A DNA stretch of 64,000 nucleotides from Vulcanimicrobiota bacterium (GCA_963723515.1 CAVRQT010000002.1:782548-846547), one strand, 5' to 3'; positions 51,712-54,608 are shown, counted from the first letter of the stretch. The notes: generated by a model from the letters alone, not told the origin. Program-made: numbers and translations.

Positions 51712-52487
51712 CGCACGAACGCGGGCATCAGCAAGAGCGATTTCGCGCTCCTGACCGTTAACGCGCACGACTAATGCTCCTTGTGCGCCAAGCCGCTCGG
51801 CGAGCGCATCGATCGGTTCGCTTTCGCCGTCGATCAGAATCCGATACGGCGTTCCGCGCAACTGAGCCGCGCTTTCCCACCGTCGCGCAACGCCATCTGG
51901 ATCTTCCAATTCTGTTAAGGGACGCTGCAAATTGGCGCAAGATCGTTGCCAGCAGATCGGCGCGTTCGATTGACTTCACGTCGCTGAGGAATCCCGGCGC
52001 AGGCTGGATGCCGTCATAGAATGTGTCGTTGGTACGCGTTACGTTGATTCCGACGCCGCATGCTGCCCACGCACGCGTTCCAACGCCGCGCGAGACGCAA
52101 AGAATGCCGGCGACCTTACGGTTGTCCAGTAAAAGGTCGTTCGGCCACTGCAACTTCGTCTCGAAGCCGTGCACAGCGAGCGCTTCTTTTACGGCCAAAG
52201 CACACCAAAACGGAATCGCCCACAGCGCACGCGGCGTCCAACGTTACGGGGAGGATCGTTGTGAAAAGCAGCGCCGCCTTCGGTGCGGCGATCCACTCGC
52301 GCCCGCCGCCGTCCGCGACCATGGGTTTGGAAGTCCGTGACGATCGTGACGCCGGAATTGCGCTCCGCTTCTTCAAGCAAGTTCAGCGCATCGGCGTTTG
52401 TGCTTTCGGTCTCGGGCTTTGTAGCGAACGTCGGAGAAAATCGTTCCGCGCCAACGCTTCTTGGGTTTTAGCGTAAGGGTTTTGCAT
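51707..52487 (-). CDS. birA: Biotin-protein ligase (multiple frameshifts)
   Basis: QTHGRG, WPNDLLL..RKVAGIL, GVGINV, GAL; pieced from several ORFs. Confidence 0.88.
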
Positions 52488-52494
52488 GGCCCTC

Positions 52495-52529
52495 AAAAGG
52501 CGAGGCGCCGCACTACTGCGGCGCCTCTT
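52495..52529 (-). terminator. Intrinsic terminator-like hairpin
   Basis: GAGGCGCCGCA-gtag-TGCGGCGCCTC (11-bp stem) then GCCTTTT. Confidence 0.7.
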
Positions 52530-52610
52530 GCGCTTCGATGTGATCGCCAGTCCGACACCTCCGAACATATCACACCGTTAACGCCGTCGCAACGCATAAC
52601 TGCATTGCGC

Positions 52611-52682
52611 TGGAGCGCCCGGGAATCGAACCCGGCGCCGCTCAGAGGGTCGGACTGGCGGTCGATACCATCGAAACGCCCC
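52611..52682 (-). ncRNA. tRNA-like RNA resembling the tmRNA tRNA-like domain, without tag-coding region
   Basis: GGGGCGT/GCGCTCC acceptor stem with G3.U70 and A73; TGGTATCGAC D-loop-like; CCGGG-TTCGATT-CCCGG T-arm; no canonical anticodon arm. Confidence 0.6.
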
Positions 52683-52767
52683 AGCAACGCACAATCCCGC
52701 TTGTTACGACTTCATCTCGTCCTACGCAGCGGAGGCAAAGCGAACCGAGCGCGCTAATGCGTGACTG

Positions 52768-54608
<1,841 letters not shown>

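Follow-up and report, generated by a model that had tools for sequence, protein, structure and literature searches.

A tRNA mimic with alanine identity features and a putative cognate antisense small-RNA gene form a conserved module in a family of Eremiobacterota

What kind of RNA is encoded between ndk (plus strand, 52768-53226) and a biotin/lipoate-ligase-family gene of a Vulcanimicrobiota bacterium (GCA_963723515.1), where the minus strand carries a tRNA-shaped sequence and, downstream, a complement of part of it? The window, i.e., the whole stretch of 64,000 nucleotides analysed here, has a preliminary description made from the sequence alone, which proposed an undescribed non-coding RNA, a mini tmRNA-like tRNA mimic with a built-in antisense strand and a terminator. 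Comparison with homologous loci firmly supports a predicted architecture in which an alanine-identity tRNA mimic is followed by the gene of a cognate, co-evolving antisense small RNA.

Layout and surroundings of the locus

The features of the window copy, all on the minus strand, are the following:
52691..52698, minus: upstream motif GGGATTGT, 5 nt before the unit, from an anchored consensus of 34 upstream regions
52609..52685, minus: tRNA-like unit with a 3-bp clamp (GCU...AGC), from sequence, minimum-energy fold and covariation
52682-52611, minus: 72-nt core of the unit, G1..A73, with a 7-bp acceptor stem, G3.U70 and A73, without an encoded CCA
52661..52675, minus: reduced D arm UUCGAUGGUAUCGAC, with 4 bp in the stem and GG in its 3-nt loop
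52638..52661, minus: anticodon-like arm, a 7-bp stem interrupted by one bulge and closed by a 9-nt loop, where, judging from the predicted pairing, the small RNA chiefly docks
52619..52635, minus: T arm CCGGG-TTCGATT-CCCGG, 5 bp with the loop UUCGAUU
52589..52610, minus: spacer hairpin from the unit to the small-RNA promoter, from minimum-energy folds, variable in sequence among homologs
52564..52592, minus: predicted internal promoter P2 of the small RNA, with conserved -35 and extended -10 elements found by comparison
52495..52559, minus: predicted small RNA of about 65 nt, its 5' end predicted from P2
52527-52502, minus: terminator hairpin of 11 bp, followed by a T run (52501-52494)

The unit has the 7-bp acceptor stem, 5-bp T stem and 7-nt T loop of a tRNA, both in its fold and in the alignment of homologs, and it possesses the G3.U70 pair, A73 and T arm expected of a tmRNA. 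The anticodon-like arm departs from the tRNA standard of a 5-bp stem, a 7-nt loop, U33 and a fixed anticodon: among homologs, loops of 9 nt predominate and their sequence drifts, and the U33 position is occupied by C in the window copy. This over-long hairpin is not built for decoding. The cloverleaf is the minimum-energy structure of the unit alone (-38.3 kcal/mol), and folding energy alone is weak evidence for the unit because the z-score is only -1.96, with 7 of 200 shuffles as stable. The 72-nt minus-strand unit with G3.U70, A73 and a perfect T arm, lacking CCA, agrees with the preliminary description, and the downstream complement of about 35 nt is likewise real, comprising an exact reverse complement and a second stretch that includes G.U pairing. 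Homologs in related genomes and the covariation of both pairings, described below, put the observation far beyond chance.

Upstream of the unit, the anchored consensus of the 34 regions reads CTTg.c....gcg....agcG.GgGAT.GA....cGCTGGGG. The motif so defined (CTTGtc...GgGAT.GA, 5 nt, GCUGGGG) lacks the last T of a standard -10 element; GGGATTGT is likely a -10-like element of the unit's own non-canonical promoter, P1, which would be a weak or alternative-sigma promoter with transcription starting at the clamp. The spacer hairpin that follows the unit has no U run after it, and its 3' side overlaps the -35 element of P2.

The putative promoter P2 reads TTGCGA-N17-TGATATGTT (52592-52564) and consists of the -35 element TTGCGA (52592-52587), a 17-nt spacer, a TG (52572-52571) and the -10 element TATGTT (52569-52564). 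A TAnnnT is present at this place in 127 of 129 distinct homologs, all from published genomes; among these 127, TTG is found at 98, 98 and 93%, the spacer has 17 nt in 107 and the TG occurs in 125, figures somewhat flattered by the choice of the best-matching candidate in each sequence. Within the -10 element, the three middle bases vary freely. In the window copy, P2 agrees with the consensus at only 8 of 12 positions, and the terminator tail contains four T; a simple consensus scan flags neither. The seed, i.e., the part of the small RNA complementary to the unit, starts within a few bases of the predicted start of the small RNA, and the motif CACATCGAAACGC is kept across small-RNA copies. 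Copies that consist of the 3' half only keep the promoter, the seed and the terminator, their conservation starting at the -35 element with unrelated sequence upstream. Judged from this comparison, the antisense half is a separate predicted small-RNA gene starting about 45 nt past the unit, and the idea of a built-in antisense strand gives way, since that half has a conserved promoter signature of its own and occurs without the unit too.

A terminator followed by birA had also been proposed; the 11-bp hairpin and its T run are present, with the reservation that the scan flags no terminator and that the ligase-family gene is split over frames. This birA-like gene (window 51758-52487, minus) starts 8 nt after the terminator T run, is split over at least two frames, and only its last ORF (51758-52198) matches the Pfam domain, in the C-terminal part only; the split represents either an assembly frameshift or a pseudogene. 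Among 28 loci scanned, 19 copies adjoin a radical-SAM gene to which they are convergent, mostly together with a UDG-family gene, e.g., the copy at G000:C2:101826-102022 (L040). The window copy is the only one of the 28 with a ligase-family neighbour, which removes both the suggested switch ahead of birA and a birA leader or riboswitch from consideration. The spacers of the tandem arrays look by eye like repeated pieces of the 3' end of the radical-SAM gene, which points to local duplication and not to a functional link.

Covariation of the cloverleaf and of the antisense pairing

The cloverleaf was assessed in a sequence-based alignment of 52 units (51 distinct), all from published genomes. 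In the 51 distinct homologs, 96.2% of cells are paired and 17 of 26 pairs are changed on both sides; none of 500 shuffles reached these pairing values, and slid controls were 35-48% paired. The T arm is paired in 99.2% of cells, with four of its five pairs changing on both sides; in the D arm, 45 sequences have AU and 3 have GC at pair 15/23, and the GG is nearly invariant. Six of the seven pairs of the anticodon-like stem change on both sides, and this local covariation means that the cloverleaf must exist at some time.

The G3.U70 pair is a determinant of recognition by alanyl-tRNA synthetase (AlaRS). Position 3:70 is G.U in 49 of the 51 distinct homologs and Watson-Crick in none, one of the two exceptions having A opposite C, while the acceptor pairs 4:69, 5:68 and 7:66 vary by compensation. 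A 3:70 pair held as G.U with compensating neighbours is the signature of selection for alanine identity; the alanine identity features of the unit (G3.U70 and A73), recognised already in the single sequence, thus appear from the alignment to be under selection. In the register used by ARAGORN, G3.U70 occurs in this genome in two of 45 calls, both of them tRNA-Ala, and a third tRNA-Ala has it as well when read by eye one base later. The tmRNA of this genome also has G3.U70 by eye one base later, and its GGGG...CUCCA ends are common with those of the unit.

The second pairing engages the same strand differently. Within 52560-52545, the small-RNA sequence contains GTCGGACTGGCG, the perfect reverse complement of CGCCAGTCCGAC in the unit; a search of the entire genome gave no better complement for that stretch. 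Within 52542-52530, CATCGAAGCGC pairs with GCGTTTCGATG of the unit, one G.U included. Segment 1 of the seed (52560-52545) complements the anticodon-like loop and 5' strand, and segment 2 (52542-52530) complements the D arm and the last acceptor pairs. In an alignment of 87 public sequences, which was fitted to the rod structure formed by this long-range pairing so that the counts are biased towards the rod, all 14 pairs of the segment 1 helix change on both sides (94.2% of cells paired), and one of the seven pairs of the segment 2 helix covaries (90% paired). For segment 2, the divergent members L187 and L203 have matched A-to-G and U-to-C changes in the D arm and its complement. The unit fold and the long-range pairing, as had been supposed, are predicted to be mutually exclusive and both covary among homologs, i.e., one strand has kept two partners.

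The complementarity is specific to each copy. Cofolding was compared in six genomes that have two or three modules each, and every one of the 13 units gained most from its cognate small RNA (-11 to -35 kcal/mol). In the genome studied here, the best complement of each seed is its own unit. For the window copy, the unit and the small RNA in trans are calculated to gain -18.1 kcal/mol over their separate folds, and in the predicted duplex the hairpin and the D arm are opened, as is the acceptor stem in part. The marks of an antisense pair, i.e., adjacent genes with copy-specific complementarity kept by co-evolution, are found in this module.

Distribution, copies and transcripts of the module

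A DNA search of relatives, unpublished genomes included, found the whole stretch of about 190 nt at 70-79% identity and revealed a second copy in this genome and three tandem copies in another. In the taxonomic family of this bacterium, the covariance model R1 detected the module in 66 of 151 genomes (a tally that also includes unpublished genomes), in 36 of 78 genera and, among high-quality genomes, in 48 of 96; single genomes have as many as nine matches, often in tandem arrays. The genome described here has three module copies, the third of which is divergent, its D and hairpin sequences being different and still complementary to its own downstream half. R1 was built from alignment A1, and A1, R1, the RNAalifold calculations and the early counts for the anticodon-like stem include the unpublished genome G022, whereas the P2, cloverleaf and 87-sequence counts given above are free of unpublished genomes. 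In a phylum-wide sample, R1 found the module in 43 of 71 genomes of this family, which belongs to the candidate phylum Eremiobacterota, and in none of 79 genomes of 20 other families. A small-RNA model matched 41 of the 71 genomes and gave two terminator-only partial hits in the 79 other-family genomes; neither part is therefore older or wider in the genomes searched.

A unit-specific pattern found at least 117 stretches in the genomes of about 185,000 species. Most of the 80 matches listed lie in records titled Candidatus Eremiobacteraeota or Vulcanimicrobiota (Baltobacteraceae, Cybelea, Elarobacter and Aquilonibacter are among the names), and a few true copies among them have other submitter labels or only 'bacterium'. 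True copies occur under the titles Babeliales, Gammaproteobacteria, Verrucomicrobiia, Acidiferrales and Alphaproteobacteria (L068, L076, L081, L122, L128 and L132); either these submitter labels are wrong, or the module is present outside the phylum. The 80 listed loci comprise 75 full modules, three chance matches in DNA that looks coding, and two deletion remnants.

The two halves decay unequally. Six weak model hits turned out to be small-RNA-only copies, truncated units or terminator-like pieces, none of them an intact solo unit, and no intact unit without its small RNA was seen in 81 further places examined; units decayed beside an intact small-RNA gene are present at L186, L193 and L198. 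This asymmetry is an indirect hint, from the pattern of loss, that the free partner may be harmful and that the antisense RNA may relieve it. Small-RNA-only copies are predicted to be able to pair with intact units of the same genome, according to a partial table of units and small RNAs per genome, the search patterns having missed divergent copies.

Traces of the module are present in RNA libraries. A small fraction of the words sampled from a homologous public locus occurs in six metatranscriptome runs, and contigs of four of these runs, from four studies, cover the homologous module, one contig of 257 nt spanning the whole; other RNA-library contigs cover only the unit or only the small-RNA half. 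This evidence consists of assembled contigs of relatives and testifies to presence in the libraries only, and not to starts, ends, strand or level, DNA carry-over being possible. The flank 494-853 of the homologous locus is uncovered by contigs, which may only reflect divergence of the relatives. Just past the module, at L124:175-261, lies an interspersed repeat of reiterated CTCAGGATGACA-type units; it has the highest contig depth in all four RNA runs, is unrelated to the module, and occurs in many genomic contexts, because many contigs end loosely in it.

Interpretation and relation to known RNAs

Taken together with the decay asymmetry, the architecture suggests, with a probability of about one half, that the small RNA unfolds and neutralises the tRNA mimic, in a way that resembles RNA antitoxin/toxin or small RNA/sponge pairs. 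The first gene would produce a tRNA-shaped RNA with a normal acceptor/T-arm half, a shrunken D arm and the over-long hairpin, and the second, transcribed from P2 to the terminator at its end, the small RNA of about 65 nt. The latter would dock on the exposed loop and then invade the hairpin and the D arm, destroying the L-shape of the cognate mimic, which would thereby be kept inactive, or the duplex would be marked for degradation. Since no terminator separates the genes, read-through is likely, and in a read-through transcript the two halves would pair with each other, with the same outcome. For the free mimic, the most likely course would be trimming by RNase P and a 3' nuclease, then addition of CCA and charging by AlaRS; since A73 is paired with U-1 in the clamp and the gene does not encode CCA, the RNA may never expose a chargeable 3' end. 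Among metagenome contigs, none of the stretches found has an encoded CCA and 69 are CCA-less; all those contigs exceed 1 kb and are therefore silent on post-transcriptional CCA addition and transcript ends.

The lack of a terminator between the halves also speaks for a single RNA of about 190 nt, running from the upstream motif to the terminator, which would act as a T-arm-displaying rod or, an idea already in the preliminary description, as a self-inhibited precursor able to switch into the cloverleaf form, the internal promoter-like motif being secondary; cis folding of one long RNA could then explain the covariation without any action in trans. The rod is indeed the minimum-energy fold of the full window transcript (-117.4 kcal/mol versus -99.7 with the cloverleaf enforced, a difference of 17.7 kcal/mol), RNAalifold picks the long-range pairing over the cloverleaf in the full-length alignment, and one RNA-library contig spans the whole homologous module. 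Against this, the promoter signature is conserved exactly at the -35 and extended -10 positions and nowhere between, small-RNA-only copies keep it with unrelated sequence upstream, and the local anticodon-like stem covaries in six of seven pairs. A single RNA is consequently regarded as an unlikely but serious alternative to unfolding of the mimic by a separate small RNA.

A tentative and rather improbable extension is an RNA-only module of the toxin-antitoxin or abortive-infection type with a tRNA mimic as its toxin, in which, once synthesis of a short-lived small RNA stops, the freed unit would be trimmed, receive CCA, be alanylated and enter or jam the translation machinery, acting as a message-less tmRNA-like domain or as an EF-Tu/AlaRS sink. 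If true, the tandem, diversifying and mutually orthogonal copies would reflect selection for independent addiction or defence modules.

By analogy with known sponges, the roles could also be reversed, the small RNA regulating other genes and the tRNA-like RNA serving as its dedicated sponge or decoy. The position of the seed at the very 5' end of the small RNA, the conservation of CACATCGAAACGC across copies, and the excess of small-RNA genes over intact units in some genomes (in G151, intact units accompany only about three of the seven full-length small-RNA matches) fit such a role. The seed is variable, however: it changes in step with its own unit and is not the same in the several copies of a genome, as a seed bound to conserved mRNA targets would be; a crude BLAST search, which is not a target prediction, found no better-than-chance complement elsewhere in the genome, and the small RNA is not wider in distribution than the unit (41/71 versus 43/71 genomes). 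The sponge role is hence considered doubtful.

The remaining alternatives, and the claimed likeness to tmRNA, depend on the relation of the unit to known RNA families. Searches of Rfam at gathering score gave no match to the module, the only matches in the window being a tRNA-Met and a tRNA-Glu, which ARAGORN calls too. A permissive search (E up to 10) revealed four weak hits in the region, including tRNA-Sec (22.2 bits, cut-off 47), mascRNA (19.9 bits) and the permuted tmRNA model, which matches the T arm only (12.9 bits); no other family, and no Y RNA, appeared at this threshold. This is in line with the proposal of an undescribed non-coding RNA, the best weak match being the tRNA-Sec one. 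In the literature search, which read titles and the beginnings of abstracts and had subscription journals outside its reach, no paper contained both 'Eremiobacterota' and 'tRNA-like' and nothing relevant was noticed. The module is undescribed; tRNA mimics and antisense RNA pairs are each already known.

The genome has a canonical ssrA at G000:C1:47840-48193 (92.3 bits with the Rfam model, tag frame present) and one smpB gene, and a collapsed or partial ssrA is thereby ruled out for the module. Whole-genome ARAGORN missed this tmRNA (0 tmRNA genes), the T loop of which differs from the usual TTCGA type, and called a tRNA-Sec gene outside the window (G000:C2:402559-402653), which suggests selenocysteine use in this genome. 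Membership of the module in the tmRNA family, as implied by the initial naming, is not borne out: the unit has no mRNA-like domain, its model match is confined to the T arm, and ssrA and smpB lie elsewhere. A message-less tmRNA-like domain that is alanylated and enters stalled ribosomes with SmpB, or titrates SmpB or AlaRS, would agree with the conserved G3.U70 and A73, with the GG-then-UCGAC at nearly the same distance from the 5' end as in the genome's own tmRNA, and with the single SmpB gene. SmpB sits at the anticodon-like position of tmRNA, where the unit instead has a closed hairpin, next to a covarying D stem; moreover, a genome-wide tmRNA search left the window copy unmatched and scored the divergent third copy at 21.1 bits, below three tRNA-Ala genes, and the presence of a full ssrA argues in the same direction. 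Such a function for the unit is very unlikely.

ARAGORN misses the window copy; of 44 homologous units it reports 10 as tRNA-Ile(gat) or tRNA-Val(gac), forcing an 8-bp acceptor stem on them. Alignment A2, which shows the small-RNA-only copies, has rows from the unpublished genomes G022, G045 and G149, and three of these 44 units come from them. The second copy of this genome (G000:C2:101828-101903) is annotated by ARAGORN as tRNA-Ile(gat), and spurious additional tRNA genes are probably present wherever these genomes were annotated automatically. A decoding tRNA charged with alanine that reads Ile/Val codons, giving regulated mistranslation masked by the small RNA, has these calls and a loop often reading YUGAUAC in its favour, and is scarcely credible in view of the 7-bp bulged stem and mostly 9-nt loop, the C at the U33 position in several copies including that of the window, an 'anticodon' that drifts (GAU, GAC, GUC and others) together with the small RNA, and no Rfam tRNA match at threshold.

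Further candidates were rejected on separate grounds. A 6S-like rod RNA, which had been suggested, is not supported, with no match to RF00013 in the region (E up to 10) or in the genome; this model found its target in only five of 14 control genomes and is therefore insensitive in some phyla; the predicted rod, moreover, has an interior of about 100 nt with two hairpins and a promoter in place of the central bubble standard for 6S. The comparison with Y RNA likewise fell, no Ro/TROVE gene being found in the 88%-complete genome and no Y-RNA match in Rfam. A role as an alanine donor for cell-wall or lipid aminoacylation was set aside with the finding of no FemAB or LPG_synthase_C domain in the same 88%-complete genome. 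A small peptide gene of the type I toxin kind is contradicted by eye, the only ATG frame in the window unit ending after nine codons and the divergent third copy having no such ATG, and the covariation of the stems argues against a coding role of the unit. Recent descent from the genome's real tRNAs is rejected as well, their D arms being canonical, unlike that of the unit.

Comparison with known systems places the module between several of them. With the tRNA-like domain of tmRNA, of which message-less mitochondrial forms exist, it shares the G3.U70/A73 acceptor, the canonical T arm, the reduced D region with GG then UCGAC and the non-decoding character; it differs in having no mRNA-like domain or pseudoknots and in possessing a true D stem and a closed hairpin, and it is multi-copy, has a cognate antisense partner and is unmatched by tmRNA models, with a normal ssrA elsewhere. 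The type I arrays Ibs/Sib and Ldr/Rdl and the RNA-only type VIII pairs SdsR/RyeA and CreT/CreA resemble it in their tandem multi-copy modules, copy-specific antisense recognition, narrow lineage range, better promoter (here a putative one) on the antisense partner and antisense genes that outlive the partner, whereas the putative toxic partner here is a tRNA-shaped RNA and not a peptide mRNA, and the antisense gene lies downstream on the same strand. In enterobacteria, the 3' external transcribed spacer of a tRNA operon sponges small RNAs, so that an RNA from a tRNA context base-pairs with a small-RNA seed there as well, but in the present module the pairing site is inside the tRNA-like body and co-evolves with one adjacent small RNA. 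YrlA and mascRNA mimics are also non-decoding tRNA-like modules with an intact acceptor/T-arm half, in keeping with the weak mascRNA match, in contrast to which the module has no Ro-binding stem, no Ro/TROVE gene was found in the 88%-complete genome, and Rfam gives no match at gathering score. Finally, the antisense control of ColE1 by RNA I and RNA II offers a parallel in the loop-initiated pairing of a cloverleaf-like RNA with a complementary RNA; the module, by contrast, is chromosomal, lies away from a replication origin and has its partners in tandem, not overlapping.

A conserved module coupling an alanine-identity tRNA mimic to a co-evolving antisense RNA is absent from Rfam 15, and it matters for annotation, as a standard detector takes some copies for tRNA-Ile or tRNA-Val genes. 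It provides a clean natural case of three-way covariation, with two alternative partners for one strand and selection retaining both pairings, and it suggests unfolding as a means by which cells may control a chargeable tRNA-like RNA. Its hosts are uncultured soil and peat bacteria of one family, and for their almost uncultured phylum, Eremiobacterota, it is, as far as this analysis could find, the first candidate regulatory RNA.
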